A stretch of 64,000 nucleotides of DNA from Ignavibacteriales bacterium (GCA_016707285.1 JADJIA010000006.1:8268-72267); one strand, 5' to 3'. Counted from the first letter of the stretch, positions 1,746 through 29,876 are shown. Notes: generated by a model not told the origin, from the sequence alone. Program-made: numbers and translations.

Positions 1746-2376
1746 GACAAAACAAGAACAACAAAAACAAAAAATCGCCGAATTTGCTTTAAGTCATTAT
1801 CGACAACACGGATTTTCAAAAGTCCCAATGGATGATATTGCTTCAGGGCTTCGCATAAGCAAAAAAACGATTTATAAGTATTACAGTTCGAAAGAAGAAC
1901 TTGTTGAGGCTGCGTTTCGAACTTTTATGGTTTCAGCTTCAGGGTTCGTAACCGAGGTCTCATTAAGCGCAAATCCTTCTGTGGTTAAATTGGTTCTGAT
2001 TCTAAGGCATATGTTGAAGGAATCGTCGACTATCTCAAATCACTTCCTTATAGATCTTCAGAATGACTTGCCCGCTCTTTGGAAAGAATTTGACACCTTC
2101 AGAGGTGGAATGATGCGAAAGGTTGTTCCAAAAATATTCAAACAGGGAGTTGAGGAAGGTTATGTGAGGGATGCCCCTGTTGCGCTTGTCGTAACGATAT
2201 TCATCTCGGGTATCAGATCGATACTGAAAAAGGAGTTTCTTGATGAAACCGGTTTTACGATGAACCAGGCATTGGGCCACTTTTATAAATTTTTATTAGG
2301 TACCATTCTTACCGAAAAAGGTAAAGAAGAATTTTCAAATATGTTATATGGAGTATTTCAAAATGAGAAGTATTAA
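1744..2376 (+). CDS. TetR/AcrR-family transcriptional regulator
   Basis: N-terminal helix-turn-helix (FSKVPMDDIASGLRISKKTIYKYYSSKEEL) followed by a helical ligand-binding domain. It sits upstream of an efflux operon and divergent from a transporter gene. Confidence 0.9.
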   Translation: MTKQEQQKQKIAEFALSHYRQHGFSKVPMDDIASGLRISKKTIYKYYSSKEELVEAAFRTFMVSASGFVTEVSLSANPSVVKLVLILRHMLKESSTISNHFLIDLQNDLPALWKEFDTFRGGMMRKVVPKIFKQGVEEGYVRDAPVALVVTIFISGIRSILKKEFLDETGFTMNQALGHFYKFLLGTILTEKGKEEFSNMLYGVFQNEKY

Positions 2377-7685: not shown

Positions 7686-8823
7686 ATGAACATCATCCTT
7701 CGGATAATCATAAAAGAATTCCAACAGTTCCGCCGTGATCCTAAAATGTTTGGAATTATCCTGATTTCACCGATCATTCAATTGGTACTGTTGGGTTATG
7801 CCGCCACACTGGATCTTAATGTTGTTCATGCTGTGGTTTTGGATTTGGATAAAACAGAAACAAGTCGGGAATTGATTCGTGAATTTTCAGGATCCACTTA
7901 TTTTAGTATCGACAAATATTGCACTACCTACGATGAAGTATATAACGAAATTGACAATGGAAAAATTCTGGCAGCTGTGGTTATTCCACGCGATTTTGAA
8001 AAGGATATCAACAGGAATGAGACGGCAGTGGTTCAGGGGATTTTTAACGGAAGTGATGGTAACTCAGCATCAATAGCTTCAGGGTATGTCTCGAAAATAT
8101 TGATTAAGTTCACCGGTGATCTCGCCACGGAAAGAATCAAGTTGAGAGGTATCCAACGAATCCCTGCAGGAGAGGTTACTTCACAGTCCAGAATTTGGTT
8201 TAATCCGGCACTTCAATCTCAGATTTTTATGGTACCGGCAATTGTAGGGTTGTTATTGAGCCTTATTACTTTACTTTTAACTTCCCTTGCTATCGTTAAA
8301 GGAAAAGGAGATTGGTACCCTGGAGCAACTCATTGTTACCCCCGTTAAATCTTATCAACTTATCGCCGGTAAATTAATTCCATTTGCAATACTCGGTTTT
8401 ATTTCTGTTGTGATAGTCCTTACCGGAATGAAATTTATTTTTGAGATTGATGTAAAAGGTGAGGTTTCGTTTCTTTTTGTAAGTTCATTTATTTACATTT
8501 TGTCAACTCTTGGACTGGGATTATTAGTCTCTACTTTTTCAAAAACACAGCAACAAGCAATGATGCTTGCGGTTTTTGCGATTATGTTACCCCTGGTCTT
8601 TTTGTCCGGATTTGCTTTTCCAGTCGAAAACATGCCCGAAATATTTCAGGATATAAGCGTAATTATTCCACTCAAATATTTCCTCCTAATTATCAGAGGA
8701 GTGATTCTAAAAGGAGCGGGTTTTGCAGAGCACTGGCAAGATGGACTCGCGATGTTTGTTATCGGAGTTGTAATTCTGGGAATAAGCATCCTCCGTTTTA
8801 AAAAATTGAGTAAACGGAATTAG
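7686..8823 (+). pseudogene. ABC-2 family transporter permease (paralog of the previous gene), split by a +1 frameshift
   Basis: ORFs 7686-8348 and 8287-8823 are in different frames. Removing one base at about 8301 (GTT AAA [G] GAA AAG GAG) gives LAIVKEKEIGTLEQLIVTPV, which parallels VRENERNTIEQIRVSPV in the paralog. Confidence 0.75.
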
Positions 8824-8936: not shown

Positions 8937-9932
8937 CTAATAAATAAAAAAAAACTTAATTTTCCTATTTTGAACATATCTTGAGTCCATTTCAACCTGA
9001 TATAAAGAGGTGAAATATGTACCAAAAACACCAAACCCGCCCGTGATGTTCGAGAAAACCTGTTCATCAAGTCTCAGACTAAAATTATCAAGAAATCCGT
9101 TAACACTTGAATAATAATTTGATAAAGGTGCATCATATTCTGTTGCCTCAAATATCACATGCAACACCCGAAACAACGATTTATCAGGCTCCCCTTCCGA
9201 AATTTTATTCATTGCCCAGTCGAACGATGCCAGATCATAATTGGCTTCTTCGTCCCGGTTGGCAACAGGGTAAATAGGGGTTGGAACTCCATTTCTGTCA
9301 ATTACTTTTAAAGGAATTTCAATACTTTTGGAGACTTCCCTGTTCCCTTCTTTTTTTGTATAATAAAGTTTCATCTTTGGGAAGCAAAGGTTAAGTTCCT
9401 GTGAAGCCCAATAGAGGCTCCATGTTTTTCCGTATTTGTACACATCCACATCTGTTGTAAATCCGCGGGGGAAAATAATGGATGATTCGTAGTATAGATA
9501 TTTTGGCACTCTGGTACCTGATGTCAACAGAACACCATTTGAAAGTCTTGCAGTTATCGTAATGGTATCACCCGAATACAGAGGAATTGCCTTTCCAAAA
9601 TAAAACTTTACTGGATCATTATATCTTGACGAGTCTTCCCTGTCAACAGTTGAATCTTTCAATAGATAGGTATCGCCTCTGAATTTTATTTCAACTCTTG
9701 CTCCGGCTATCTCAGGTGCTTCAGTGTTCAAATACGGGTCAGTTCCCGGAACATCATATACTCTTGCAAGAATCACTTTTGGCACAACAAGTTCCCCTAT
9801 TTCCTGTCCGGCAGTGATTGAAAAAAGGACATACCCTTCCTTAAACTCCGATCTTGGAGTAAAACTGTCCTCACAGCCTGTGGCAGAGAATAGAAATAAC
9901 ATTAGAATGATTGAAGAAAAAAACGCTTTCAT
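8937..9932 (-). CDS. Hypothetical lipoprotein co-transcribed with a TonB-dependent receptor (DUF4249-like by context only)
   Basis: Signal peptide with lipobox (LFSATGC). Its start is 1 nt from the stop of the upstream receptor gene. No recognisable catalytic motif. Confidence 0.6.
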   Translation of the reverse strand: MKAFFSSIILMLFLFSATGCEDSFTPRSEFKEGYVLFSITAGQEIGELVVPKVILARVYDVPGTDPYLNTEAPEIAGARVEIKFRGDTYLLKDSTVDREDSSRYNDPVKFYFGKAIPLYSGDTITITARLSNGVLLTSGTRVPKYLYYESSIIFPRGFTTDVDVYKYGKTWSLYWASQELNLCFPKMKLYYTKKEGNREVSKSIEIPLKVIDRNGVPTPIYPVANRDEEANYDLASFDWAMNKISEGEPDKSLFRVLHVIFEATEYDAPLSNYYSSVNGFLDNFSLRLDEQVFSNITGGFGVFGTYFTSLYQVEMDSRYVQNRKIKFFFIY

Positions 9933-9933
9933 G

Positions 9934-12198
9934 TTAAAACTCCGCTTTCACAAACAATGCAGGGAGAATTGGCAGTTGGTTTACCCTCTTTCCTGTTTTT
10001 TTATCAAAATAGTAAATATTGGCTCTGTTATAAAGATTCAAAACACTCGCACCGATGGTAAAATCCGCAAATCCCGTTTTGAACTTCTTTGTCACCGAGA
10101 GGTCAAGTCTGTGGTAAGATGGAAGTCTGCCTGAGTTTTTGATGTCGTAGATAAATTGAGGTTCATAACCATTAAATATGTTGATGGGGGTTGTTCCATC
10201 CAACAACAATTTATCAAAGAAACCGGAAATTGGGGTAAACGGCATACCGGAATTAAGCATCCAGTTTGCTGTGAATTGCCAATTGCCACCCGGACTGAAA
10301 CCCGCAAGCAAACTGAGCGAATGTCGAACATCATATCGTGGTGCATAAGTTAAATCCTTCGCCTGTTTCTCTGCCCAACCAAGGGCATAAGTGGCTCTAC
10401 CGTAAAACAGACTCCCCTCAAACTTTAGCGAAGTTTCAACTCCATAGGAAACTCCGTCGATATTCTTAAAATCGAATTGTACTGAAGTAAATTTTTTCTC
10501 ATTAACTTCCATCAGATTCGACATTATTTTATAATACGCCTCAATCTCAAGAACAACTTTGTCTGTAAAATAAGATGTAAATCCCGCAATAAAATGAGTA
10601 GCCTCGGCTGCTGTGATATTGTTTGGAATGATTATCCAGGGTTCAAAAACCGAGATCAATTCATCCTCGTTTGCGAGAGAAACCAACTCTTGTGAATACC
10701 GCCCAAAGGCAAATTTGAAGATCATCAATCTGTTTAATAAATAAGTGATGCTTATTCTTGGCTCAAAAAGAAATGGCCTCTTGTCAGCCATCGACAAGAG
10801 ATTAAATCTCATTCCAAGATCGAGCCCTACATCATCCCATCTAAAAAATTTATAATTCAGATATGCTGCAAGTGCACTTTTGTTTACAGTGTAATCCATT
10901 TCCCGTTCGAGTTGATTTTCCTGTTTCAGGGCAGTGGTAATATATTTATTCTGAACACCAAAAAGGAGTTGATCCTTGCTGTCATAAATATATGCAAAAT
11001 CAGCATTTACTGTGAAATCTTTAACATTGTTTTCCCTTGGCTTTGAACCACTGAAGTTTGGTTCAACCTTTGCCATATAATGTGAATATGAAAATATCAC
11101 ATCAGAAACGAGTGGTGAGCCATTCCATATTTTACTCCATTTGAATCCGCCGATATTATTTCTGATATCGTAATCCTCCAATAGCGGATCGTGATTTATA
11201 ACCTGATCACTGCTTAAAAATGTATGTGCGCTAAATTTGCTGTTCTCATCGATAGATGGTGAAGAAAAATTCACTTTGAGTGAAAGATCATAAAAATCGA
11301 AAGGAGTATCTTTTTCATTCAGGTATTTTCTTAGAATGCCCGAATAATAACTTTTTCTTCCGGTCATCAGGAAAGAACCTCCGGGAATTGGTCCTTCAAC
11401 CGCAACTTTGCCGGATAAAAGCCCTGCTTGCAGTGTCCCTTGATAAAAATTCTTGTTTCCATCCCTGGTTATTATATTAAGAATAGACGAGAGTCGGTCA
11501 CCTGAAGAAGGAGTAAATCCCCCTTTATAAAATTCAAGTGACGAAATAATTTCAGGATCTATTACGCTAAAAATTCCCAATGCGTGAAATGGATTATAAA
11601 CCGTGGCTCCGTTTAAGAGAACCAGATTCTGATCACTCCCTCCCCCACGGACATAATATTTTGATGTGGCATCCCCCGTGGTATTTACTCCGGGATTATT
11701 TTGAATTACCCGAAAGATATCCATCTCTGCACCTACAGGTTGCAATTCTATATCTTTTACTGAAATTTTTTCAAGTCCAAGATCTGTTTCATTTTCCCTG
11801 GCATTTCGTTCCCCGACGATTGTCACCTCATCTATATCCACTGAAATTCGAGTCAGTTTGATGTTTAGATCATTAATTACGCCCGGTTTTATGTTAATCT
11901 CAACCTTGTTTGTCTGATACCCGATACAAGAGAATTTAACCACCCTTTGCCCTACAGGAATTGATGGGATAAAATAATATCCCGAACTGTTGGAGGAAGC
12001 TCCAAATTTTGTTGTTTCAATAACAATATTTGCATATGGTATGATTTCACCCGTTAATGAATCGGAAACTATGCCTCGAAGATTACCTGTGGTCTGGGCT
12101 TCAACAGAGGTGTAGAAACCGGTCAAAAGTAAAATCGTTAGAATATATGTAAATAATGATGTGTTTGTTTTGGAAAGAAAAAATGGAGATAATAACAC
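9934..12198 (-). CDS. TonB-dependent receptor with an N-terminal carboxypeptidase-regulatory-like domain
   Basis: GNLRGIVSDSLTGEIIPYANIVI...GYYFIPSIPVG matches the CarboxypepD_reg fold. A plug region follows (DIFRVIQNNPGVNTTGD...YVRGGGSDQNLVLLNG), then a long beta-barrel ending in aromatic ...LFVKAEF. Apparent GTG start. Confidence 0.88.
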   Translation of the reverse strand: MLLSPFFLSKTNTSLFTYILTILLLTGFYTSVEAQTTGNLRGIVSDSLTGEIIPYANIVIETTKFGASSNSSGYYFIPSIPVGQRVVKFSCIGYQTNKVEINIKPGVINDLNIKLTRISVDIDEVTIVGERNARENETDLGLEKISVKDIELQPVGAEMDIFRVIQNNPGVNTTGDATSKYYVRGGGSDQNLVLLNGATVYNPFHALGIFSVIDPEIISSLEFYKGGFTPSSGDRLSSILNIITRDGNKNFYQGTLQAGLLSGKVAVEGPIPGGSFLMTGRKSYYSGILRKYLNEKDTPFDFYDLSLKVNFSSPSIDENSKFSAHTFLSSDQVINHDPLLEDYDIRNNIGGFKWSKIWNGSPLVSDVIFSYSHYMAKVEPNFSGSKPRENNVKDFTVNADFAYIYDSKDQLLFGVQNKYITTALKQENQLEREMDYTVNKSALAAYLNYKFFRWDDVGLDLGMRFNLLSMADKRPFLFEPRISITYLLNRLMIFKFAFGRYSQELVSLANEDELISVFEPWIIIPNNITAAEATHFIAGFTSYFTDKVVLEIEAYYKIMSNLMEVNEKKFTSVQFDFKNIDGVSYGVETSLKFEGSLFYGRATYALGWAEKQAKDLTYAPRYDVRHSLSLLAGFSPGGNWQFTANWMLNSGMPFTPISGFFDKLLLDGTTPINIFNGYEPQFIYDIKNSGRLPSYHRLDLSVTKKFKTGFADFTIGASVLNLYNRANIYYFDKKTGKRVNQLPILPALFVKAEF

Positions 12199-12225
12199 AG
12201 TGAATTTTCTTTAAATATTTTGATA

Positions 12226-12262
12226 AAATAAAAAGGCTGCCGTCTCCAGCAGCCTTTCTTTT
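12226..12262 (-). terminator. Rho-independent terminator after the 12323-21152 operon
   Basis: Stem GGCTGC (12235-12240) / GCAGCC (12249-12254). On the minus strand it is followed by TTTTATTTT. Confidence 0.8.
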
Positions 12263-12322
12263 AAAGTATCAGGTATTAAGTATCAGGTATCAATTCTAAT
12301 GCTTTAGACCTCAACTTCAATC

Positions 12323-13621
12323 TTATTTCATGAGAAGCATTTTGTTTGTAAGTCTTACATTGTTCGAAACCACTTCGTAGATGTAAGTACCTGAAGCCAA
12401 TTTTGAAGCATCAAATGAATAAGCATAAACGCCTGATCCAAGATTTTCACTAACGAGAGTAGCTACTTCTTTACCAAGAATATCATAAACCTTCAGGGTT
12501 GTGAAACCGGCTGACTTCAATGAGAATTTAATTTCAGTTGAAGGGTTGAATGGGTTAGGATAGTTCTGGAAAAGTTTAAAGTCATCGGCTACCATACCGA
12601 GATCTTTAATACTTGATGGGTTTGGATTGATGAATCTTTCAACCGGTGGATAGTTTGAAGCACCAAATGCGATAACATAAGCTGTATCTCCTGATGGTGA
12701 AAAAGCTATACCGCGAGGTCTTGCATCAGCTGTTCCTGGATATGTATTCCAGATTAAGCTATCGGTGATCTCACCAGTTTCGGTGTTCATTGCATACCAT
12801 GCTCTTGAAGTCCAGAAAGTTGTTGCACCTGGATATCTGTTTGGAAGATCATTGTTTGATCCGGCAGATGCCCAAAGACGATTGTATTTTCTGTTCCAAG
12901 CCATTGATTCTGAATCAAATCCTTTAAATACTGTATCAGTTACAGTAAATGGTGAGAATTCATCAGGTCTGGTATATTTTAATACTGCATGGTTGGTATA
13001 ACCAGCCCAGTATATTGTATTACCATCGGCACCAACTTCAAATGATCTTGAAAATCCAACTGACGAATCAACTGCGTTTCCAAGGAAATTAAAAGTAGGA
13101 TCCCAGATTTTGATTGGGTTTCCACCAACTACGTTTGCAGTGAAGATGTTACCATTGGCATCTGAAGCAGCAGCTACGCCTGAAGCACCAAGAACATTTC
13201 TCATAACACCTTTTGATAAGCCGGTTTTGTAGTCAACCTTCTGAACAAAATCAAAGTGTGTTGCAAGAATATCACCATCGTAGTGAGCTTTCATACCTCT
13301 ACCTGTGTTTCCAACCAGGGAATCAACAAATGTTGGTCCAACGAACACTTTAATTGGTGAGAAAGATGCCTGGGTTCCGTCAGGATTAAAGCAAAAGAGC
13401 GCACCTGTTTTTACCCATGCGTTACCATTCCAGATTGAATCTACAGCAGAACTGTAAAGATGTATCCAGACTCTTCCGTATGGATCGCAAGCGACGCCAT
13501 GACCGCCTGAACCGAAGCGAAGGCTTGTAGTATCCGGGAAATATCCGTCAAAGGTCCATCCTTGAGCGAAAACCCCGCTTGTCAGCAACACAAACATAAA
13601 TAGTGCAGCTAATTTTTTCAT
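12323..13621 (-). CDS. Secreted beta-propeller-like protein with a T9SS type-A C-terminal sorting domain
   Basis: Signal peptide (FVLLTSGVFAQG). Repetitive beta-rich body. C-terminal FQNYPNPFNPSTEIKFSL...GTYIYEVVSNN...KMLLMK is a canonical Por secretion tail. Confidence 0.85.
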   Translation of the reverse strand: MKKLAALFMFVLLTSGVFAQGWTFDGYFPDTTSLRFGSGGHGVACDPYGRVWIHLYSSAVDSIWNGNAWVKTGALFCFNPDGTQASFSPIKVFVGPTFVDSLVGNTGRGMKAHYDGDILATHFDFVQKVDYKTGLSKGVMRNVLGASGVAAASDANGNIFTANVVGGNPIKIWDPTFNFLGNAVDSSVGFSRSFEVGADGNTIYWAGYTNHAVLKYTRPDEFSPFTVTDTVFKGFDSESMAWNRKYNRLWASAGSNNDLPNRYPGATTFWTSRAWYAMNTETGEITDSLIWNTYPGTADARPRGIAFSPSGDTAYVIAFGASNYPPVERFINPNPSSIKDLGMVADDFKLFQNYPNPFNPSTEIKFSLKSAGFTTLKVYDILGKEVATLVSENLGSGVYAYSFDASKLASGTYIYEVVSNNVRLTNKMLLMK

Positions 13622-13689
13622 TTTGTATCTCCTATGTGAGTTGATTATGAGCTATAAAAATAGTAAACTATTTCCGAATAAAAAGTGAA

Positions 13690-14943
13690 TTATTTTCTAC
13701 CTGAATAAGCTGCACCTTGCACGCCCATCAGGACTTTTACGATTGTTTGGTCGTTTGTTTTTCCAGAAACCAGACCTGAAGCTCTTGTGTAATAGAGGTT
13801 CGAGCTGTTATCCCATGTAAGATACATGGCGTTTAATGGAAGAAATACTCCCGGGTAATGAACTGAAACAACTCCTGCCGGAGTAACCTTCAGAATTGGT
13901 TCAACATTGTTTGTCGCCAGGAAAATATTCCCGTTGATGTCCATCGTAAATTGATTGATATAAACATTAAATCCGACCGATGCACTGAGATTGGCAACAG
14001 TCTGTGCATTTGCAGGGTCTATATCACCGTTTACATCCAATGGGAATCTGTAGAGAATACCGGCGGAATCCTTTTTAACAGCAACATATACTGCGTTGTT
14101 ATAGACTCTGATGGCAGAGGCAGTAGCAACAAAGGGATATGATTTCAGAACTTTTGTGGGACTCACTCTAAACAGGGATGCATTATCACCACAAGCCCAG
14201 ATATTTCCCGCTTCATCAAAATCGATATCAGCTATTTTTACTGTATTTGGAGTGATTGCAAACCATGAAGCGATTGCCGCACCTTCCGTCATTCTAAAAA
14301 TGGCACGAAGTGAATTTCTTACACCATAAAGAGCACCGTCAGGTCCCATTTTGAGGCTTGTGAAGACATATCCACCACCGATTGAAGGTGTAAAGTTAGA
14401 CTTAACTCCTGCCGGAGTAACTTTAACGATATTATTAGTTACTCCACTTGTAAGGAGTGAATAGTACATGTTACCGTTTTTGTCAAATTCGAGTGCTGAG
14501 GGCAACTCAAAACTTTGAAACGCAAATGGAAACTCCGCTGCCTGTATCAGTTTAACAGTTACAGTATTGCTGAAAGCAAGTGCACCTTTTACTCTGATTT
14601 TTACAAGTGCAGTTGCACCGGCTGCTGAGACAACTCCTGCCCTTACTTTTATCATGGTTGGAGAAGCCTCAAGAACAGTTCCAATCGACTGATTGAAATA
14701 AACTGTATTCTCTGTGAGTACACTTGAGAAGTTTGTGCCTGTGATTGTCAACTCGGTTATTCCACTTAATCCACTGTCAGGGGTCACTGTTGAGATAACA
14801 GGATCCGGCTTAACAGCAACATTGGGGTCAAACAGAGTGGTTGTTGTGTCGTTACCACACCCGGAGAAGAGTATCATCGTCGATATCAGAAGATATACCG
14901 GGAGCAGAACATTTTTAATTTTATTCATAAAAATAGCTTTCAT
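13690..14943 (-). CDS. IPT/TIG-domain plus beta-propeller (NHL-like) lipoprotein
   Basis: Lipobox ILFSGC. VISTVTPDSGLSGITELTITGTNFSS...TVYFN is an IPT/TIG-type Ig fold. Propeller-like repeats follow (GNMYYS, GALYGV, GNIWAC, GNIFLA). Confidence 0.8.
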   Translation of the reverse strand: MKAIFMNKIKNVLLPVYLLISTMILFSGCGNDTTTTLFDPNVAVKPDPVISTVTPDSGLSGITELTITGTNFSSVLTENTVYFNQSIGTVLEASPTMIKVRAGVVSAAGATALVKIRVKGALAFSNTVTVKLIQAAEFPFAFQSFELPSALEFDKNGNMYYSLLTSGVTNNIVKVTPAGVKSNFTPSIGGGYVFTSLKMGPDGALYGVRNSLRAIFRMTEGAAIASWFAITPNTVKIADIDFDEAGNIWACGDNASLFRVSPTKVLKSYPFVATASAIRVYNNAVYVAVKKDSAGILYRFPLDVNGDIDPANAQTVANLSASVGFNVYINQFTMDINGNIFLATNNVEPILKVTPAGVVSVHYPGVFLPLNAMYLTWDNSSNLYYTRASGLVSGKTNDQTIVKVLMGVQGAAYSGRK

Positions 14944-14963
14944 TTTTTAACCCGTCTGATAAA

Positions 14964-15980
14964 TTAATACTCAAATCTGACAGTGAAGTTGTGAACTGAG
15001 CTGAAGATTCCAAATGGTGTATAAGCATAATCAACAGCCATTTTGATACCATCCAGTTCAGGACGAATACCAAAGCCGAGGTTGTACTCTTTTTCATCAT
15101 TAGGGAACGAAACTCCGCCACGCAGGTAAACCCACTTCATAAAATTATACTCGCCACCGATATATAATTGCTCGGGATAATCTCTCGGGTGAGAAACATC
15201 AACAGCAAGAAGGAAGGAGTGTTGATTAGCAAGACTTGGGAAAAAGTCCATCAGATTCATTGCCACACCTATCTTAAAGTTCAACGGAAGCTGGAAACCA
15301 TCCTCTTTATACTTTATTTCGGTTGAGAAATTCCTTACACTCATTCCAAAATTAAGGCTCTTGAATCCGGTTTTATAGAAAATACCAAAATCGTAAGCAA
15401 GTGTAGTGAGTGAATTTTCTTCAGTTAGCATTTTACCTGTGTTGTCAAAAGAAATCGGGCTGACACCCAGATTCTGGCGGACATATTTAACCTGTCCACC
15501 GACACTGAATTTTTCAGACAGAGCGTTGGCATATCCAACACCTATTGCAATAGCAGTTGGTGTGAATGTTCCAACATCCCTGTAACCTCTCTCCGTGGTT
15601 CCATCAACTACGGTCATCAAGAGATCACCATAATTAACAGCCATCACTGAAGCACCAAACTTACCCCATGAAGGGTCAGCCGGTTGAAGTGAAAAACTCG
15701 AATATACATAATTGATATCTGCGATCCATTTGTTAACACCTGCGGAAACATCACCGCGGGTATCACCAAATGCCATTGTGGCAGGATTGTAGAACAGTGC
15801 TGCAGACCCGCTTTCTATAGCTGTGAAGGTCTCTCCCATACCTGTTGCTCGCGCATCGGTTGGAACACTTAAAAATTTCATACCTGCCTGCGCTAACTTC
15901 GTCCGCTGTGCGAGAGTGTCAGGCTGGAGAAAGCTTACGGCAAGGAACATCGTCGCCGTAATTAATAAATACTTTTTCAT
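14964..15980 (-). CDS. PorV/PorQ-family outer-membrane beta-barrel (T9SS cargo shuttle paralog)
   Basis: Signal peptide, then AGMKFLSVPTDARATGMGETFTAIESGSAALFYNPATMAF. This matches the FL.I.PDARA.GMG....A......A.FWNPA..AF N-terminal signature of PorV proteins. Alternating beta-strand pattern ending in ...FTVRFEY. Confidence 0.75.
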   Translation of the reverse strand: MKKYLLITATMFLAVSFLQPDTLAQRTKLAQAGMKFLSVPTDARATGMGETFTAIESGSAALFYNPATMAFGDTRGDVSAGVNKWIADINYVYSSFSLQPADPSWGKFGASVMAVNYGDLLMTVVDGTTERGYRDVGTFTPTAIAIGVGYANALSEKFSVGGQVKYVRQNLGVSPISFDNTGKMLTEENSLTTLAYDFGIFYKTGFKSLNFGMSVRNFSTEIKYKEDGFQLPLNFKIGVAMNLMDFFPSLANQHSFLLAVDVSHPRDYPEQLYIGGEYNFMKWVYLRGGVSFPNDEKEYNLGFGIRPELDGIKMAVDYAYTPFGIFSSVHNFTVRFEY

Positions 15981-16002
15981 AATCTTTTCAGTCCCGGTTA
16001 AG

Positions 16003-18057
16003 TTAGCGAATAATTACAAATTTAACCGTGTGTTTTTCACCGGTCTTTGTGTCTGTAATAACACCAATATATACACCACTAACAACAATCTGACCTGATG
16101 AGGTAACCTGGTTCCAGAACTCATCGCCCGATCCGTCGTTGTGCTCGATAGTTTTGATCAATTCACCCATTTCGGTGTAGATCTTTATCGTGCATTCTCC
16201 GGGTATATCATAAAATGCTATTCTGTCGCCTGCCGCACCACCCGGGAAGCGCACCTGATCGGGCACAGAACTCGAGTTATACGGATTCGGAACAACTCTA
16301 ATTTGATTTAGCGCAGTACCGGCTTTTCTTTTTAGTCTTGCAGGATCATACGATTGTGAATAATATCTTGAGCTTTTCGCTCCACCGGCACCAACTGCAG
16401 AAACATAATAGTAATAATCGAATCCTCTTGAAAGTGAGGTATCGTTATATGATGTGGTTCCGGCAGGAAGTGTCTGAATCAGATGATATGTTGAGTCAAC
16501 ATTTGCAGAAGCTCTCCAGATCTCGTAACCCGATGGATTTTCACCATCATAAAGTGACCAGGAAAGAGTAATTCTGTCGCCACCTGATTTGATATCAAGA
16601 ATCTTTGGTGGTTTTGGTGGATTCGGAATGGTTGCCCAGTTGGCATCATAAGCATCTTTGATTTTTTTGAAAGTTGCCATAAGGGAATCTTTTCCCTTCA
16701 TAACTTCCTGATTTTTTTGCAACGCTGTTATTGTTCCATTCTTAAATCTTTTACCAACTTCAAGTCCGGCTTCATAACCCATACCTGCAACAGCTTCTGC
16801 CCAAACGATGGTAACAGAATCACCGGGTGCTAAAGTGTAAGGACCATATCCATTAACTGCCGAAGTTCCACCGGTACCGGTTCCGTAAGGAGCAGCGGTT
16901 TGAGCGGCATAATTACCATCAGGTTGAACAGATTTAGCATGTCTTGGTGATTTGTGACCTGCTGACATAAGGGTATATTCACCCTGCATTCTGTTCACGT
17001 TGAATGCGTTGTTTCCGGCAAGGAATTCGTTTCTGTCAGAATCTTCCCATCCGGTGGTGGATGGCTGACTCGGATCATCAGATTTGTCGGTTGCTGATTT
17101 ATCTGCATGAAGTGTAATGTTACCAACAAACTGCCATGCAGCGAGACGACCTACTGTGTCACCTTTGTCAAGATATCTTGCAGCATTGGAGTTAATCGAC
17201 CATATCGGTCCTCCAATATTGTCATAAGTTACTTCTTTTGCCGGGTGATATCCGTGCCATGAGAACTGGCATCTGAACTGTTCACCAACAGGGTCAACTT
17301 CAACGCCATCACCTCTGGTATCCACCATGGTATTAATACCCCATCCGGACGAGTTACCGATAACATACCGGGCTTGTTTATTGATGGAATATCTAAATGT
17401 ATAGTAGAGATAAACACCTGTTAAAGTGTTGTTTGGAAGTTCGATAGTTGTTGGATCAGCGTCAGTGTTTCCGGTGTTTTTATATGTATATTCATACACA
17501 ATAAAATTGTCATATCCGGGTGCACTGAACTGATAAATTTTTCTGTTCATGGTTAAACCCAGCTGGGTGTGTACCACATTATCCAACATTCTGTCTGCTT
17601 TAAGTGTAGGATCTATTCTGTCGATCGAAACATCTTTCTCATACGAGATATTCCCGTCAACATTAACAATCGGAGCATCATATTTGGATATGAGTTCAAA
17701 TTTTTCAGGGAAAGCAGCCCAGAATTGTGGGTTTCTTGGTCCAATTGACACAACCTTCACGGGATAAAAATCACCTTTTGCGTCGGTGAAGTTGGCAGCG
17801 CCAATCCAGTGACCTTTCATGGCAACATTATCCTGATAACGGTAGATGGCAGGATAAGCGAGCCCTTCTTGCTGGGTTTTTACAAATCCCTGCTCTTCAA
17901 GCTCACTTCCAATTTCTGAATACCAGCTGTGCAATGAGCCAACTGACATCCATTTATTCTTAAACTGTGCATTCACATCCATTGAACCAAGTATCAACAG
18001 CAGAGTAAAGACAGTTAAGAACGACTTTGAAAATTTAATTACAATTTCTTTTTTCAT
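16003..18057 (-). CDS. Secreted protein of unknown function with an Fn3-like module and a CTD-like C-terminal beta-sandwich
   Basis: The likely start is ATG 18057 (MKKEIVIKF..., GAGGA 6 nt upstream). The longest ORF reaches 18099 and overlaps the receptor stop (TAATG). Signal peptide ...MDVNAQ. An Fn3-like segment (PPKILDIKSGGDRITLSWS...YEIWRA). The tail VVPNPYNSSS...IKIYTEMGELIKTIEH...SGVYIGVITD...VKFVIIR resembles a T9SS/FlgD-Ig sorting domain. Confidence 0.75.
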   Translation of the reverse strand: MKKEIVIKFSKSFLTVFTLLLILGSMDVNAQFKNKWMSVGSLHSWYSEIGSELEEQGFVKTQQEGLAYPAIYRYQDNVAMKGHWIGAANFTDAKGDFYPVKVVSIGPRNPQFWAAFPEKFELISKYDAPIVNVDGNISYEKDVSIDRIDPTLKADRMLDNVVHTQLGLTMNRKIYQFSAPGYDNFIVYEYTYKNTGNTDADPTTIELPNNTLTGVYLYYTFRYSINKQARYVIGNSSGWGINTMVDTRGDGVEVDPVGEQFRCQFSWHGYHPAKEVTYDNIGGPIWSINSNAARYLDKGDTVGRLAAWQFVGNITLHADKSATDKSDDPSQPSTTGWEDSDRNEFLAGNNAFNVNRMQGEYTLMSAGHKSPRHAKSVQPDGNYAAQTAAPYGTGTGGTSAVNGYGPYTLAPGDSVTIVWAEAVAGMGYEAGLEVGKRFKNGTITALQKNQEVMKGKDSLMATFKKIKDAYDANWATIPNPPKPPKILDIKSGGDRITLSWSLYDGENPSGYEIWRASANVDSTYHLIQTLPAGTTSYNDTSLSRGFDYYYYVSAVGAGGAKSSRYYSQSYDPARLKRKAGTALNQIRVVPNPYNSSSVPDQVRFPGGAAGDRIAFYDIPGECTIKIYTEMGELIKTIEHNDGSGDEFWNQVTSSGQIVVSGVYIGVITDTKTGEKHTVKFVIIR

Positions 18058-18098
18058 TATTTCCTCAGATTTATATTCCATTCCTGGTTCACTGATCA

Positions 18099-21000
18099 TT
18101 ACTTAAGTTCAACCATTATTCTCAAACCCCAATAGATTGCTCTTGGGTTTAAGAAAGCTGTGTAAGCAAGGTTTGGCATATCAATGTATGATTTGTTTTT
18201 ACGCCATTCTTCTTTTTGAGATTCGCTGGCATTATCATCCCAAGGAATGTACTCTCCGGTTCTTACATCTCCGGGTTTGTCTTCTCCAACTATATTTTTA
18301 TATCCAAATTGACTGAATTCAGATGCAAGATGGAGTGACTGCATATAAGCATCATAATCTTTTGCATCAACAAAGCCGGCTCTGTAATCGAGGTACTTTA
18401 TGTTGAAAAGATTGGATATATCAGCAAACATCTCAAGTCCTACAGGTCCAAGTCTGAAGGTTTTCGAAATTCTCATGTCAAAATTGTAAAAATCTTTCCA
18501 TTGAATGTTATTCGAGAAACCGGGTCTTGTGCCGCCGGGGCCTGTCCATGCAAAATATGTTCCCGATGACCAGGTTGCAAGAAGATTGATTCTGATATCC
18601 TCGAGCAAATAAATGCCACCAATTTCAGGACCAAATTGCATTGGTGTAAAGATGTCGATGTTGGCTCTGCCATAAGGCTGAGGAACAGGTTTCACCTGAT
18701 CAAAAAGTGCTGTATTTCTTTCAGATTCTCTTTGAAGAGCAGGGTTTTCGTAATAGGTTGGAAGTCCAAAATAGCCGTAGGAAGCAACCATGTATGTGTA
18801 GTTAACAAAACCGGTTATCCATTCACCTCTGTTTTTAGTAAGTGTAACTTCAAACCCGCGGATATCACGGTACATGTTTGGTTCAGGAACACTGTATGAA
18901 ACCGAGTTGTCGCGGCTGATATAACCTACAAGTCTTGACTCGTCACTAACATCTTTGTAGTAACCCGCAAGTCTAAGAAGGAACATATCACCAAGATTGT
19001 GCTCATAACCCAACTCATAAGCCACTGTTTTTGGAAGTGGATTGTTTGGATTTGCAAGTCTGGTAACTGCATTGTTTGTAGTATTTCTTCTAAGAAGGTA
19101 AAGATTCTCAGGAGCAGGCATCGATCTGAAGTGACCATAGTTGAAAAACAACTTGCTGTTCACTGTAATAGGAAATGCCACGCCCAATCTTGGACTTAAA
19201 CTTAGTATTTTCTCGGTGGATTCTTTCATCAACAGATTGTCGATGTCTGAAGAATATGCACCTGAAAAAGCTTTGTTGTATGCATCATAAAGATACCACT
19301 CTCCACCTGCGTGTGAATAATCGAGACGAAGTCCGATATTGGCTATCATTCCTTCAAACTCAAGTTTTGTCTGACCATAAATGGCTCCCCTTACAGGGAA
19401 TGTGTGCCATTTGGAGGTAGAGTTACTTGTTGGGAGTGAAGGCTCAATAAGAGCGTAGTTAACATTGTTATCGGTGTAGATGAATTCAACACCTGCTTTA
19501 ACCGCCATAATTTTGTTGAGCTGGCTTGAAAAATCAAACCTGCTGCTCCAGGTATAAACCTTTGAACTGTCTCTGGAGTTTGAATACCCCAAGCCCATGT
19601 TCATCGAGCTTCCGATACCTGACGAAAATCCGCTAAATACACCAAATGGTGATTCATCATAAAAATTGTTACCAATTTTCACAACATTACCGGTGTTTCT
19701 TGGGCTGCCCGGATTGGTGCTGTATTCAGAACCAACAACATTTAATTGAACTTCATAAAAAGTTGATGGTGAAAGAACATGCACAAACTTTGCGCCCAAC
19801 ATTTTTCTGTCAACTTTTGTTGGTGCCCAATAATCCGTTGCAAAAGCTCTTGCATCAGAATAACTTGCTCCTGAACGAATGTCCATATCTGAGACAATCG
19901 AATATGCGGAACGGAAAATACCGGGTCCACCACTTCTTGAACTGCTGGTGCCAGTCTGTAATCCGAGTAAACCTTCAATAGTAAATTTCATTCCTTGTGC
20001 GATGTCAGAAGTAATCTTTACGTGAGTACTCCAATCATGATAGGAATTTGTTGAAAGTGGAATTACATACATTTCGCGGCTGGTTCTGTAGGAGGCGAGG
20101 AATCTAAGATCACCAAGACTTGAACTTACAACGGGAACTGGTCCACTAATGCTAAAGTCCATATCATAGTCGGGTTGAGTGATTCCCATCGGTTTTCTGT
20201 GCTGCCACAAAAACAATTGCTGAGCAGCTTCAGGTGTAAGATCGTTAGAAGGATCTTCATCGGATAAAAGTTCCTGAGAAACTTTATCCCATCCTCTAAA
20301 TTCATGGTATTGAGCCATTGTATAAGCATCCCAGGCTCCGCTTTTTGTACCTGCGAATGCTACTGCGGGATCAACATAAGGTCTGATGTAGTAGGCATTG
20401 TAGTCATTTGGTTGCTCACCCCAGTTTTTTGCACCTGCGGGTCTGTATCTGCCAAGAAATACTACATTATATTTATCTCTTTTTCCTTCAGTGGTAACCA
20501 CATTCACGAGACCGGAACGGATATTACCATATTCGGCGTTAAAACCACCGGTTTGAATCTGAATTTCTTCAACAGAGGTAAAACTGATTCCTGTATAAGA
20601 AGAGTTATCTCTTTCATCTCTAAAAGTGATACCATTGATCATAAATGCAGTCTGATCTGAGCCACCACCTCTTACGGTCAAGCCCTGAACACCTGCTTGC
20701 AAGCCAATAACACTTGCAACGCTTACTATCGGAAGATTTGCTACATCTTCCATTGAAATGTTAACAACGCTGGAAGAAACATCTTTCTCGATCACGGGTT
20801 GAGTAGCGATGATAACTACTTCCTCTGTGGTCATCGATTCATCAGCCAAAGTAAAATCCACTGTTGTGGTCTGGTTGATGTTTACCTTAACTTCCTGGTA
20901 TGATTTTGATCCGTACCCGATCATCGATGCTTTAACTGTGTAGCTGCCCGGTGATATGTTCAGGATAACAAAATATCCTTCAAAATCCGTTTTTGCTCCC

Positions 21001-21152
21001 AGCTTTGTGCCTTCAATGATGATCGTGGCACCAATCAGAGTCTCTCCTGTTTTCTGATCTTTGACAACTCCGGTCATTTTTCCCGTCTGCGCAAAGAGCG
21101 GATAACTGAGAAGGAGAAAGGTTATACATAAAATTGTATGCCTAAACCGCAT
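18099..21152 (-). CDS. Large TonB-dependent receptor with a carboxypeptidase-regulatory-like domain (SusC-like architecture, no SusD partner seen)
   Basis: ATG 21152 is preceded by AGGAG (the longest ORF, to 21185, starts at TTG). Signal peptide ...PLFAQ. GKMTGVVKDQKTGETLIGATIIIEGTKLGAKTDFEGYFVILNISPGSYTVKASMIGY is the CarboxypepD_reg domain. The plug region is SVIGLQAGVQGLTVRGGGSDQTAFMINGI, followed by a barrel of about 750 aa. Confidence 0.88.
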   Translation of the reverse strand: MRFRHTILCITFLLLSYPLFAQTGKMTGVVKDQKTGETLIGATIIIEGTKLGAKTDFEGYFVILNISPGSYTVKASMIGYGSKSYQEVKVNINQTTTVDFTLADESMTTEEVVIIATQPVIEKDVSSSVVNISMEDVANLPIVSVASVIGLQAGVQGLTVRGGGSDQTAFMINGITFRDERDNSSYTGISFTSVEEIQIQTGGFNAEYGNIRSGLVNVVTTEGKRDKYNVVFLGRYRPAGAKNWGEQPNDYNAYYIRPYVDPAVAFAGTKSGAWDAYTMAQYHEFRGWDKVSQELLSDEDPSNDLTPEAAQQLFLWQHRKPMGITQPDYDMDFSISGPVPVVSSSLGDLRFLASYRTSREMYVIPLSTNSYHDWSTHVKITSDIAQGMKFTIEGLLGLQTGTSSSRSGGPGIFRSAYSIVSDMDIRSGASYSDARAFATDYWAPTKVDRKMLGAKFVHVLSPSTFYEVQLNVVGSEYSTNPGSPRNTGNVVKIGNNFYDESPFGVFSGFSSGIGSSMNMGLGYSNSRDSSKVYTWSSRFDFSSQLNKIMAVKAGVEFIYTDNNVNYALIEPSLPTSNSTSKWHTFPVRGAIYGQTKLEFEGMIANIGLRLDYSHAGGEWYLYDAYNKAFSGAYSSDIDNLLMKESTEKILSLSPRLGVAFPITVNSKLFFNYGHFRSMPAPENLYLLRRNTTNNAVTRLANPNNPLPKTVAYELGYEHNLGDMFLLRLAGYYKDVSDESRLVGYISRDNSVSYSVPEPNMYRDIRGFEVTLTKNRGEWITGFVNYTYMVASYGYFGLPTYYENPALQRESERNTALFDQVKPVPQPYGRANIDIFTPMQFGPEIGGIYLLEDIRINLLATWSSGTYFAWTGPGGTRPGFSNNIQWKDFYNFDMRISKTFRLGPVGLEMFADISNLFNIKYLDYRAGFVDAKDYDAYMQSLHLASEFSQFGYKNIVGEDKPGDVRTGEYIPWDDNASESQKEEWRKNKSYIDMPNLAYTAFLNPRAIYWGLRIMVELK

Positions 21153-21377
21153 ATTACTGACTCCTGTGTGTGTATCTTTTAACAAAATTATATAAGCAAT
21201 GCCGCTTTGATGTTAGTAAATCTGTGTAAGTGAGTTTGATGACTGATCTCTATTGATTATTACAACCATAATAATTAAAGGTTGCCCCCTTTCTATGTTT
21301 TTATAGAAATCATTCTACCAAAACTAAAGAAAAAAAACGATATAAGGAATAGAGACCCGCTTTTTTATCACTTTTTT

Positions 21378-23597
21378 CTACTTTTTATGCAATTGTTCTT
21401 CAAAAAAGCCGAGCATCGAGTTAAACAAGTGCATTGTTGTCCCCTTACCTTCAGAGATTCCGTGTGATCTGTTTGGATAAGGCATGTATCTGAACTGTTT
21501 TCCGGCGGCAACAAGTTTGTTTACGAGGTATTCAGCATTCTGGAAATGGACATTGTCATCACCAGTTCCATGGATAAGAAATAAATTTCCTTCAAGATTT
21601 CCGGCATAGGTTACGGGTGAACATTCCTTGTAAGCTTCAGGGCTGTCCTGCGGAAGTCCCATATATCTTTCTTCATAAATTGTGTCATAAAACCTGAGAT
21701 CGGTAACAGGTGCAACAGAAACCCCAAAATGATAAGACTTCGGATGTCTGAACATCATGTTAAGAGTCATGGAACCACCACCGCTCCAACCCCAAACGCC
21801 AACCTTTGTAGCATCCAGGTATGGTCTCTCATCAAGGAGAGTCTGAAGTGCTCCGGCCTGATCCTCCGTAGAAACAACACCAATTTTTTGATAAATAGAT
21901 TTTCTCCACTCTCTTCCCTTTGGAGCGGGTGTCCCTCTTCCATCAACACTCATCACAACATATCCTTTATCTGCGATTATTTTGTGATATAAGCCCATAA
22001 AGCCATCATATTTGTCGAGAACAGTCTGACTTGAAGGTTCATTGTAAACATAAAAAAGTACAGGATATTTTTTGGCAGGATCAAAATCAGATGGTTTTAC
22101 GCACCAGCCATCAACTTCCACTCCACCGGGGGTTTTTACCGTGAACAACTCGTAATTATAATCAACACTTTTCAGTTTCGCCTTGAGTGTTTCATTGGTG
22201 ATCTCAGTTCTGATGATATTGTGTTTTGGTAAATCGATAAAATATACCGATGCAGGTGAGTTAATGTTGTAATGTACATGATACGCAAACAACCCGTCAC
22301 CCGATATGGAATATGTGTTATATCCCGTAAATTTATCGGGTGTGAGCCTCCTGGGTTCAAATTTACCATTGAGACTTGCTTCATAAAGATATCTTTGTGT
22401 TCCGCTGTTGGGGGAAGCATAATAATAAACTGTGCCGCTGTTCTCAACAAACCTTACCAGTTCCATAACATCGTGATTGGTGTTCATTATATTCCTTGCC
22501 TCACCTGTCTTCAAGGAAACGAGGTACATCTGAGCATACCCGCTTTTGTCACTTATCCAAAACATCTCTTGATCGTTATTTATGAATCTCCAATCGTCAA
22601 CCACTTCGGTCCAGGCATTTTGTTTCTCGTTATAAAGCTTTTTTACTTCACCTGTTGCCGGATCACCCAGATACACTGTCATTTCATTTTGTAATCTGTT
22701 TAAATGTTGAAATGCGAGTTTACCTGTGTTACCTGCCCACTCCATTCTCGGAATGTAGTTGTTGGCAGGATCATCCCCCACATTCATCCAAACAGTTTTT
22801 CCGGTTTTTATATCAACAGTTCCGACTATACATTCGCTGTTTTTCTCCCCTGCTTTGGGATACTGAACCGGTATGGTATAGGAATAAAGTGAGTCGGTGT
22901 TATTGATCATTAAAAAATCTTTGATGTTTTTAGCATCCAATCTCCAGAATGCTATTCTGCTGCCATCAGGACTCCATCTAAATCCATCACGGATGCCAAA
23001 CTCCTCTTCGTAAACCCAATCAAAAGTGCCGTTGATTATGGTTCTGCTTCCATCAGTGGTTAACGCTTTAATTGTTCCCGATTCAAGATCTTCAAGATAT
23101 AAATTGTGTTCTCTTACATAAGCAGCATATTTTTCTGTCGGATCGATTTTTGCGAATTGAAGGGTAGATGGTTTTGCATCACTTCCGCCTAATTGTCGCA
23201 ATTTTTTTGATTCGGTATTGTAAACCCAATAATCCCCCTTTGAATTTACTCGCCAGACTCTTTTGGTATTGGTATAGATCAGGATGTATTTCCCTGATTT
23301 GCTGAATTTAAAGTCATTTAACCCAAGTGGAGTGTTTTTCCCTTCCGGAACAAAATCTTTCGTCTCTGCAAGCAGGGTTTTATTACCTGTTGAAATGTCA
23401 ACTTTAAAAATCTGAGAGCCATCGGTTCCATCTTCCATCTTATAGTAAGTGTGCCCGCTTTCTGTCCAACTTACACTTTTAAAAAACTCTCCTGAAAATT
23501 CCCCGCGGAAAAGTTTTTCAATTGTCACTTTCTCCTGCGCTGATGCAGAAAATAATATCAAAACTATAAATAGTGAAATTTTCTTCATGTTAAACAT
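21378..23597 (-). CDS. Dipeptidyl-peptidase IV (S9B prolyl oligopeptidase family)
   Basis: DPP-IV N-terminal propeller (DWVYEEEFG), catalytic GWSGGGSM, and LIHGTGDDNVHFQN containing the Asp. The alternative start Met4 (23588) gives a standard signal peptide. Confidence 0.92.
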   Translation of the reverse strand: MFNMKKISLFIVLILFSASAQEKVTIEKLFRGEFSGEFFKSVSWTESGHTYYKMEDGTDGSQIFKVDISTGNKTLLAETKDFVPEGKNTPLGLNDFKFSKSGKYILIYTNTKRVWRVNSKGDYWVYNTESKKLRQLGGSDAKPSTLQFAKIDPTEKYAAYVREHNLYLEDLESGTIKALTTDGSRTIINGTFDWVYEEEFGIRDGFRWSPDGSRIAFWRLDAKNIKDFLMINNTDSLYSYTIPVQYPKAGEKNSECIVGTVDIKTGKTVWMNVGDDPANNYIPRMEWAGNTGKLAFQHLNRLQNEMTVYLGDPATGEVKKLYNEKQNAWTEVVDDWRFINNDQEMFWISDKSGYAQMYLVSLKTGEARNIMNTNHDVMELVRFVENSGTVYYYASPNSGTQRYLYEASLNGKFEPRRLTPDKFTGYNTYSISGDGLFAYHVHYNINSPASVYFIDLPKHNIIRTEITNETLKAKLKSVDYNYELFTVKTPGGVEVDGWCVKPSDFDPAKKYPVLFYVYNEPSSQTVLDKYDGFMGLYHKIIADKGYVVMSVDGRGTPAPKGREWRKSIYQKIGVVSTEDQAGALQTLLDERPYLDATKVGVWGWSGGGSMTLNMMFRHPKSYHFGVSVAPVTDLRFYDTIYEERYMGLPQDSPEAYKECSPVTYAGNLEGNLFLIHGTGDDNVHFQNAEYLVNKLVAAGKQFRYMPYPNRSHGISEGKGTTMHLFNSMLGFFEEQLHKK

Positions 23598-29066: not shown

Positions 29067-29876
29067 TCAGGTAAAAAGCAGTGTTACCACCGTCCCGGCA
29101 TATTTTTCGGACTTTATCGACAGGTCGATATTGTTGATATCACTAAAACCTTTTACCGCGGCTAAACCGAGACCAATCCCTTCATACTTTCGTGAATAAC
29201 CCTGGGATTCCTGTGAAAACAGACTAAAAACCTGCTGAAGATATTCCTCGTCCATTCCAATTCCTGTGTCGATGATCGAGATTTGTAATCTTCCATCAGG
29301 AGTACGCGTTATGTCTATTTCAATAATTCCTTTTTCAGTATAAGCAATGGAATTATCGATGAGATTGGAACAAATCTGAATAGTTGAATATTTGTCGGCA
29401 GTAATCTCACAGTTTAAAGTGGTCGAATTAATAATAAATCGTACCCCCCTTTTTTCGACCAGTGACTTTTTCACTGCAATCATCGGGGCGAGAACTTCAT
29501 GAAAAATATCAAATCTTTCAGGCTTTGGAGTGTATGTTCCACTTTGTAATTGTGAAACCTGCACCATCAGATCAATAGTTCGGGAAAGCCGGTCGCTGTC
29601 CTCCACCATAATGGAAGTCAGTTTTGAAATATCTTTATTATTAAAAAAACCAAGATCAGCCTGGAGCTGTTTGGCGGCCTGCTGAAGAGAATTCACCGGG
29701 GTTCTAATCTCATGAGAAATCATCGCGAGGAATTTACCAACCATTCCAAGGTTATCTGCACACTGTCTTGAAACGAATTCCAACTTTTCGAGAAGTTCCT
29801 GATTCTTCTCTTTTTCTCTTCTCAATTCCTCAAGCAGTTTTTCATTCATTTCAGCTTCATCCTTTGCAAGGATCAT
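29067..29876 (-). CDS. Soluble histidine kinase (coiled-coil + HisKA + HATPase_c, no sensor or transmembrane domain)
   Basis: H-box MISHEIRTPVNSL, N-box NLIDNSIAYT, G-boxes IIDTGIGMD and GIGLGLAAVK. No hydrophobic segments. The ATG at 29876-29874 overlaps the TGA (29875-29873) of the upstream amylase gene. Confidence 0.88.
   Translation of the reverse strand: MILAKDEAEMNEKLLEELRREKEKNQELLEKLEFVSRQCADNLGMVGKFLAMISHEIRTPVNSLQQAAKQLQADLGFFNNKDISKLTSIMVEDSDRLSRTIDLMVQVSQLQSGTYTPKPERFDIFHEVLAPMIAVKKSLVEKRGVRFIINSTTLNCEITADKYSTIQICSNLIDNSIAYTEKGIIEIDITRTPDGRLQISIIDTGIGMDEEYLQQVFSLFSQESQGYSRKYEGIGLGLAAVKGFSDINNIDLSIKSEKYAGTVVTLLFT

Follow-up and report, generated by a model that had tools for sequence, protein, structure and literature searches.

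Gene content and layout of the cassette

The 64,000-nt window analyzed here originates from an Ignavibacteriales bacterium (GCA_016707285.1, JADJIA010000006.1:8268-72267) and contains, on the minus strand at 12323-21152, a cassette of five genes, which are designated G1 to G5 in order of transcription. They encode a TonB-dependent receptor (G1, 1017 aa, 18099-21152), a secreted protein of an unnamed family (G2, 684 aa, 16003-18057), an outer-membrane barrel of the PorV/PorQ family (G3, 338 aa, 14964-15980), a lipoprotein (G4, 417 aa, 13690-14943), and a secreted protein with a type-A C-terminal domain (CTD) of type IX secretion systems (T9SS) (G5, 432 aa, 12323-13621).

The open reading frame (ORF) map placed all five co-directional genes where the initial annotation had them, with intergenic gaps of 41 nt (or a 1-nt overlap) between G1 and G2, 22 nt between G2 and G3, 20 nt between G3 and G4, and 68 nt between G4 and G5. 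The ATG of the 684-aa G2 ORF is preceded at 5 nt by GAGGA, which resembles a Shine-Dalgarno sequence. A promoter-like site upstream of G1 (21187-21216, minus strand; CTAACA-18-TATAAT) is predicted from a consensus match at 10 of 12 positions, and is followed just downstream by TAATTTTG, an element similar to the -7 motif of Bacteroidetes. At the other end, 64 nt past the G5 stop codon, an intrinsic-terminator-like hairpin (12230-12259, minus strand) combines a 13-bp stem including six GC pairs with a T-run, whereas the other terminator-like sites found in a scan of 11800-21800 have stems of at most six pairs. The ORF map and the terminator scan thus agree with the earlier description of five co-directional genes with very short gaps ending at one terminator. 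In distant relatives the gene upstream of G1 is a different one, so the conserved unit begins at G1. Rfam models matched only tRNAs in the window and in eight related loci, with no riboswitch in the cassette leader and no cobalamin riboswitch; riboswitch or cofactor control was therefore rejected, and a vitamin-type receptor is not indicated.

Sequence features of the cassette proteins

G1 starts with a signal peptidase I (SPI) signal peptide (LFA/Q) followed by a CarboxypepD_reg-like N-terminal domain (CarbopepD_reg_2, E 9e-19), a TonB-box-like motif, a Plug domain (E 1e-6, 29.3 bits against a cut-off of 23.9) and a large predicted C-terminal barrel, the general features of TonB-dependent receptors. 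The TonB-box-like motif, EEVVIIAT, precedes the plug and is retained in orthologs as EEVV(I/V)(I/V)A. The match to OMP_b-brl_3 (E 2e-4) is under the gathering cut-off (21 versus 27 bits), and the SusC/RagA model TIGR04056 gave 66.4 bits against a cut-off of 368.25, with the alignment limited to residues 25-445. No close solved TonB-dependent receptor was found by sequence. G1 is a TonB-dependent receptor whose N-terminal CarboxypepD_reg domain is of the SusC style.

G3 has an SPI signal (TLA/Q) and the C-terminal sequence ...RFEY. In agreement with the initial annotation, which had assigned it to the PorV/PorQ family, it matches the family model NF033709 with 198.6 bits (cut-off 90) over model positions 2-325 of 326, Pfam PorV with 39.3 bits (cut-off 27), and the PorV of Flavobacterium johnsoniae (6h3i_F) with E 7.5e-8. 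Its scores are under the cut-offs of both equivalog models, PorV (NF033710, 86.6 versus 250 bits) and PorQ (NF033711, 88.2 versus 220 bits). A related Ignavibacteriales genome has a canonical PorV, which adjoins a large unannotated gene (>1085 residues), probably porU; G3 is 23% identical to this PorV, and a hidden Markov model built from cassette G3 sequences scored 389-539 bits with the cassette barrels compared to 100 bits with the canonical PorV. On these profile scores, G3 is a PorV/PorQ-family protein belonging to a subfamily of its own, distinct from canonical PorV. Two relatives (L058:202-3596 and L074:243-3633) encode, directly upstream of a GHL10-CTD gene, another PorV-like paralog that is more distant from G3 (119-128 bits), which hints that cargo-specific PorV-like barrels are possibly common in these genomes.

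G2 has a cleavable SPI signal (VNA/Q) without a lipobox and, apart from a weak fn3 match at about residues 483-561, no Pfam family. Its AlphaFold2 (AF2) model based on 61 homologs (pLDDT 87, pTM 0.81) comprises a beta-rich N-domain (~450 aa, ~30-475) ending in long helices, the fn3 domain (483-560), a flexible linker, and a CTD-like C-terminal beta-sandwich (~585-684). Foldseek searches with the whole model retrieved tandem fn3 structures only. The N-domain, modeled separately with a poorer pLDDT of 67, retrieved the N-terminal super-sandwich domains of GH94 phosphorylase, GH116 and GH65 (E ~1e-5, TMq 0.30), a weak predicted link at the fold level to carbohydrate-active proteins. No SusD-family Pfam match was detected at E≤0.1, and the AF2 model is mainly beta. 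Assignment of G2 to a known enzyme or to SusD was rejected, as it matches no Pfam or NCBIfam family, its N-domain has no sequence relative in the PDB, and the Foldseek matches are weak.

The last ~100 residues of G2 match the PorZ C-terminal domain (NF052228) with E 2.4e-6 and 26 bits (cut-off 260), and hhalign aligned them with the type-A CTDs of the window and related loci with a probability of 88% (E 3e-6). The family is large: a word-index search with G2 gave 1428 matches, the top 120 listed having 52-97% identity, and a representative library contains 376 clusters (50% identity) at E≤1e-30. Its distant members join the same N-domain to BNR/Sortilin propellers or DUF1565 beta-helices, and six of the seven examined have a canonical Por_Secre_tail at the C-terminal end. 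The canonical CTD in this position of the paralogs supports a diverged T9SS signal domain at the C-terminus of G2. The G2 tail is remotely related to both type-A and PorZ CTDs. In the four loci examined (4/4), no receptor and no PorV-like gene lies near the BNR-fused G2 paralogs that have a canonical CTD; receptor and barrel accompany the divergent-tail form of G2. These contexts cannot tell a G2-G3 pairing from a G2-G1 pairing. The BNR-fused paralogs are followed by a conserved lipoprotein of ~325 aa without a Pfam family (L081:13380-14357 and L084:10377-11360), which was rejected as a PorV-like barrel because it has no similarity to G3.

G4 has a lipobox (LFSG/C), the Cys of which is conserved in orthologs, an IPT/TIG domain at residues 48-128 (TIG, E 5e-8), and a probable beta-propeller with sub-threshold matches to Vgb_lyase, Reg_prop and Tachylectin. 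In G5, a signal sequence (VFA/Q) and a probable beta-propeller precede a type-A CTD at residues 354-428, which exceeds the cut-offs of both Por_Secre_tail (39.2 versus 27 bits) and TIGR04183 (38.8 versus 23 bits). Seven loci encode a longer form of G5 (~800 aa), and the one scanned against Pfam has a CBM20/CBM48-like insert. The TIG lipoprotein and the canonical type-A CTD of the initial annotation are therefore borne out; its propeller label for G4 and G5 reflects matches that are all sub-threshold (Vgb_lyase, Reg_prop, SBBP, SGL). Of the two CTD proteins it had counted, G5 is canonical, and the tail of G2 is divergent and CTD-like, with scores below the CTD cut-offs. G4 and G5 were also considered as mutual paralogs or as relatives of solved structures, and both possibilities were rejected as no significant similarity was found.

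The residue following the predicted SPI site is Gln in G1, G2, G3 and G5, and in G2 this Gln is invariant in 61 homologs. The "Q-rule" has been described as Bacteroidetes-specific and not common to the whole Fibrobacteres-Chlorobi-Bacteroidetes (FCB) group (PMC5837995).

Conservation across phyla

A scan for relatives with one genome per species revealed 270 species with a G2 relative, and the best 80 loci were examined. They represent Ignavibacteriaceae, Melioribacteraceae, Stygiobacter, KSB1/Zhuqueibacterota, Caldithrix and metagenome-assembled genomes (MAGs) under various labels. Nearly all complete loci show the order G1-G2-G3-G4-G5 on one strand, and G2 comes directly after G1 in all complete loci but L071, in which the two are ~940 nt apart. 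G4 is present in 68 of the 80 loci, and 23 Ignavibacterium-type loci have an extra lipoprotein gene, nearly always between G2 and G3. The KSB1 loci contain a second, divergent G1-G2-G3 trio in tandem; such extra copies consist of the trio only, without a G4 or G5 of their own.

With the second KSB1 G2 copy as query, a second orthologous lineage (NCBI name "fibronectin") was reached, represented by four loci from Calditrichota, Marinimicrobia, WOR-3 and Delongbacteria. All four (4/4) follow a design of receptor, G2-like protein, small lipoprotein and PorV-like barrel, to which a TIG protein is added in WOR-3, Delongbacteria and Calditrichota and a propeller with a CTD in Calditrichota; in Marinimicrobia and Calditrichota these genes are succeeded by another receptor-G2 pair. 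Between lineages, the flanking genes show no relationship. The recurrence of the same order in nearly all of the 80 loci and in the four second-lineage loci argues that the arrangement is not due to chance. Thus, G1-G2-G3 is the invariant core of the cassette across phyla, with G4 nearly always present and G5 often. Synteny had been proposed earlier as a check, and the order is indeed retained in relatives from Ignavibacteriota, KSB1 and Caldithrix and in the second lineage. The carriers include the genome of a cultured Stygiobacter electus strain and MAGs assigned to Ignavibacterium album and Caldithrix. Several paralogous cassettes occur per genome, which suggests different uptake specificities, as in polysaccharide utilization loci (PULs), and speaks against a single housekeeping machine.

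Evolutionary rates and covariation

Mean pairwise identities over 41 loci were 62% for G1, 62% for the G2 N-domain, 69% for the G2 C-terminus and 59% for G3, and these three proteins are equally slow. G4, the least conserved protein (40%), and the G5 body (44%) evolve faster, with 59% identity in the G5 CTD. Covariation was analyzed using partial Mantel tests over 42 taxa. The G2 N-domain covaries with G1 when G3 is controlled for (r 0.69, p 0.0005), as does the G2 C-terminus (r 0.48, p 0.0005). With G1 controlled for, G3 showed its strongest covariation with G4 (r 0.51, p 0.0005), followed by the G5 CTD (r 0.36, p 0.002), and that with the G2 C-terminus was not significant (r 0.08, p 0.18). 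The G5 CTD did not covary with G1 when G3 was controlled for (r -0.01, not significant). These results suggest two modules, one formed by the receptor and G2, and the other by the barrel, the lipoprotein G4 and the G5 tail. This pattern fits the idea, put forward in the initial annotation, of a barrel holding CTD-bearing surface proteins beside the receptor, and lends it indirect support. We also considered a PorZ-like G2 tail held by a PorQ-like G3, which domain matches and paralog contexts would favor, but the partial Mantel tests gave this pairing no support.

Proposed function and alternative explanations

We estimate the chances as about even that the products of the operon form an outer-membrane uptake complex powered by TonB, in which T9SS components, and not the SusD lipoprotein route, would deliver and hold the surface parts. 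In this model, G2 would be exported by the T9SS and seated on the extracellular face of G1 as a substrate-binding partner or lid. G3 would be a fixed anchor, by analogy with PorQ, which holds the uncleaved CTD of PorZ as PorV holds that of PorU (PMC10202324), and with BamG, which keeps the surface lipoprotein BamH in place (PMC12578637, PMC12611786). It would hold G4 and/or the G5 CTD, and possibly the G2 CTD, next to the receptor, with G4 and G5 acting as auxiliary binding proteins. Receptor-centered surface capture is a known kind of system, here apparently assembled with T9SS parts. More tentatively, and with the odds somewhat against it, the cassette may represent an unrecognized class of TonB-dependent uptake machines, ancient in the non-Bacteroidota FCB phyla, in which a PorV/PorQ-like barrel would be a permanent stoichiometric subunit docking T9SS-delivered and lipidated binding proteins, G2 would be a non-SusD "lid", and the T9SS would serve, beyond secretion and attachment, as an assembly route for nutrient transporters.

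Several observations weigh against an uptake complex of this kind. The homology of the G2 tail to CTDs is based on the hhalign probability of 88% and on sub-threshold PorZ matches: in the PDB, the PorZ chain was matched at E 1.2, G2 has no Por_Secre_tail match at E≤0.1, and the type-A CTD cut-offs (PF18962/TIGR04183) are not reached. The G2 C-terminus shows no covariation with G3, and the partial Mantel test itself readily yields false positives with related sequences and with protein pairs of unlike rate. The G2 N-domain resembles super-sandwich folds only weakly, as its low TMq indicates, and the match derives from the model with pLDDT 67. In this window, no enzyme or regulator informative on the substrate adjoins the cassette, and the hints from relatives conflict, with GHL10 proteins pointing to both peptidoglycan and starch, and with peptidases, amidases and a glycosyltransferase of family 2 (GT2) also among the neighbors.

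Less probable, in our estimate, is that G3 acts as a transient, cargo-dedicated T9SS shuttle, which, in the manner of PorV, would escort G2 and/or G5 away from the SprA translocon; the cargo would then be released or attached to lipopolysaccharide, and the tie to the receptor would be loose or nil. Work cited in PMC12578637 describes PorV as a shuttle, the type-A CTD of G5 is fully canonical (and presumably cleavable) and covaries with G3, and the further PorV-like paralog in L058 and L074 adjoins a gene for a CTD protein. However, G3 is tied to G1-G2 in every complete locus, including the tandem trios without their own G4 or G5, and is conserved as much as the receptor, while none of the five other type-A CTD proteins of the window has a PorV-like gene alongside.

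Somewhat more doubtful still is a role of G3 apart from CTD handling, either as a FadL-type channel for a substrate portion that is hydrophobic or amphipathic, or as a holder gripping the lipidated N-terminus of G4, or else that of the small extra lipoprotein of many loci, in the way BamG clamps BamH. The PorV family consists of FadL-like barrels, and G3 has weak Toluene_X and TodX matches; besides the BamG-BamH precedent, the covariation of G3 is strongest with a lipoprotein (G4), and an extra lipoprotein gene separates G2 from G3 in nearly all of the 23 Ignavibacterium-type loci that have one and in all four second-lineage loci. On the other hand, the best family match of G3 is by far PorV/PorQ, two CTD or CTD-like proteins share the operon, and the extra tandem trios have no G4 of their own. 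It is improbable that the five are merely co-regulated outer-membrane and surface proteins without a shared complex, their order being that of an inherited old operon: many CTD proteins and several TonB-dependent receptors are scattered in the window, so that clustering is not rare in this genome, but the order is held across at least six phylum-level lineages and two paralogous lineages with completely different flanking genes, the intergenic gaps are very short, and covariation follows specific modules.

Comparison with known systems

Bacteroidota and their relatives feed on polymers via TonB-dependent receptors with surface partners, and to our knowledge the designs described so far depend on lipoproteins, for example SusD, BtuG or HmuY. 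The cassette resembles the SusC/SusD PULs, including RagAB, in having a CarboxypepD_reg receptor followed by the gene of an extracellular partner and by more surface proteins in the operon, in the secreted enzyme and Reg_prop/Y_Y_Y sensor adjacent to it in relatives, and in the presence of several paralogs per genome. G2 takes the gene position held by SusD in a PUL. In contrast to SusD, G2 is beta-rich without the helical tetratricopeptide repeat fold, is not a lipoprotein, and has a CTD-like tail; G1 scores below the cut-off of the SusC/RagA model, a PorV/PorQ-family barrel is added, and no SusD-family gene lies directly downstream of G1, where a SusC/SusD pair would have it. Melioribacter roseus has a SusCDE operon (PMC3534657), so SusD is present in the phylum and the cassette is an alternative, non-SusD design and not a phylum-wide replacement. 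The earlier suggestion that the module functionally replaces SusD should accordingly be read as one of an alternative to SusD.

Like the PorQ-PorZ and PorV-PorU pairs, in which the barrel retains an uncleaved CTD protein at the surface, the cassette encodes a PorV/PorQ-family barrel together with CTD proteins, and the best named match of the G2 tail is the PorZ C-terminal domain. Unlike these pairs, G3 is under both equivalog cut-offs and has its gene within a receptor operon instead of beside porU; G2 lacks the propellers of PorZ, its tail does not covary with G3, and a separate PorZ-like gene is present at 60325-62580. PorP/SprF-like barrels with type-B CTD cargo (SprF-SprB) also have a cargo-specific PorV-like barrel gene adjoining that of the T9SS cargo, but the cassette barrel is of the PorV/PorQ family, the tails are of the type-A kind, and the unit is centered on a TonB-dependent receptor. 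In the BamG-BamH pair of the Bacteroidota beta-barrel assembly machinery (BAM), a 14-stranded barrel of the FadL family is a fixed anchor for a surface lipoprotein within a larger outer-membrane machine; that machine is a different one, and BamG and G3 are compared here at the level of their shared superfamily. In the BtuB-BtuG system for vitamin B12 in Bacteroides, a surface beta-propeller lipoprotein catches the ligand for a TonB-dependent receptor. G4 is likened to BtuG by description and has an added TIG domain, and the cassette differs in having no cobalamin riboswitch in the window and eight loci.

No description of the cassette was found in the literature searched, most subscription papers being outside its reach, in line with the initial annotation, which knew of no characterization of this arrangement. 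The carriers (Ignavibacteriota, KSB1, Calditrichota, Marinimicrobia, WOR-3 and Delongbacteria) abound in sediments, bioreactors and oceans, and their substrate uptake is little understood. If the parts form one complex, a function could be given to the large unnamed G2 family, the role of PorV-type barrels would extend past the secretion system, and a concrete, testable model of outer-membrane transport in these phyla would become available.

Gene neighborhood and putative substrate

In the window, the cassette is flanked upstream by a DPP-IV peptidase and a phosphoribosyltransferase and downstream by a separate receptor-DUF4249 pair. In relatives, a GHL10-fn3-CTD gene, the product of which is predicted from its CTD to be T9SS-secreted, is adjacent and co-directional in 38 of the 80 loci, lying upstream in those of the Melioribacter type and downstream in those of the Ignavibacterium type. 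Its presence on either side depending on locus type indicates that the linkage outlived rearrangement. A Reg_prop/Y_Y_Y histidine kinase and a LuxR-type regulator, which resemble PUL sensors, are located directly upstream in ~12 loci. With an adjacent GHL10 gene and kinase/regulator genes in relatives, the wider locus looks PUL-like. The initial annotation had reported no glycoside hydrolase or regulator gene, which holds for this window but not for the relatives.

The GHL10 member Cwp19 is a peptidoglycan lytic transglycosylase (PMC6016235), and another member, DogH, is a starch-active enzyme (PMC9967864). Other recurrent neighbors include Amidase_3-Big_5 and PD40/DPP-IV proteins, M19 and M29 peptidases, and an OPT transporter; the sole gene-called copy of Amidase_3-Big_5 (in L085) also has a T9SS CTD. 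As a best guess, and no more than a guess, the substrate would be a glycan or glycan-peptide polymer, either an alpha-glucan-like glycan or cell-wall (peptidoglycan) fragments.

A soluble GT2 of ~490 aa is also linked to the cassette in 38 of the 80 loci, in 11 of them together with DUF4922, and has no copy in this window. It is found in loci of the L010-L041 and L025-L066 types (for example, L011:13972-15432 and L036:3126-4592), downstream in Melioribacter-type and upstream in Ignavibacterium-type loci, and its relevance to the cassette is unexplained.

The receptor-DUF4249 pair (8937-12198, minus strand) lies directly downstream of the cassette terminator. Its receptor (9934-12198, minus strand, 754 aa) is a CarboxypepD_reg/Plug TonB-dependent protein and is followed at 8937-9932 by a gene with a sub-threshold DUF4249 match (21.6 versus 28.5 bits). 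The pair is retained in the closest relatives (L001-L004) and not beyond; in L005 the DUF4249-like gene is cut off.

Other features of the window

On the plus strand at 60325-62580, the window encodes a 751-aa protein in which a PorZ N-terminal beta-propeller domain (E 7e-14) is combined with Reg_prop repeats; in all probability this is the organism's canonical PorZ, a part of the T9SS attachment complex. The minus strand contains the genes of five more type-A CTD proteins (24807-27650, 29873-32974, 33998-35245, 35257-37164 and 42585-44933), one of them alpha-amylase-like/He_PIG and another an M28 peptidase that has a MAM-like domain. Given the PorZ-like gene and the other type-A CTD proteins of the window, at least five in number, we infer that the organism has a T9SS.

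Within 29067-32974 (minus strand), the gene of a 269-aa histidine kinase (HisKA and HATPase, without a sensor domain) overlaps the end of the amylase-like CTD gene by 4 nt, and such a pairing of genes for a secreted protein and a cytoplasmic kinase is unusual. An ABC/HlyD/OEP efflux cluster on the plus strand includes two overlapping ORF pairs, 2348-2866/2835-3332 (2348-3332) and 7686-8348/8287-8823 (7686-8823). One or both ORFs of each pair were scanned for family matches, and the sole matches were those of 2835-3332 to an HlyD barrel-sandwich domain and of 7686-8348 to the first half of ABC2_membrane_3. Each pair looks like one split gene, which may reflect a frameshift or an assembly error.

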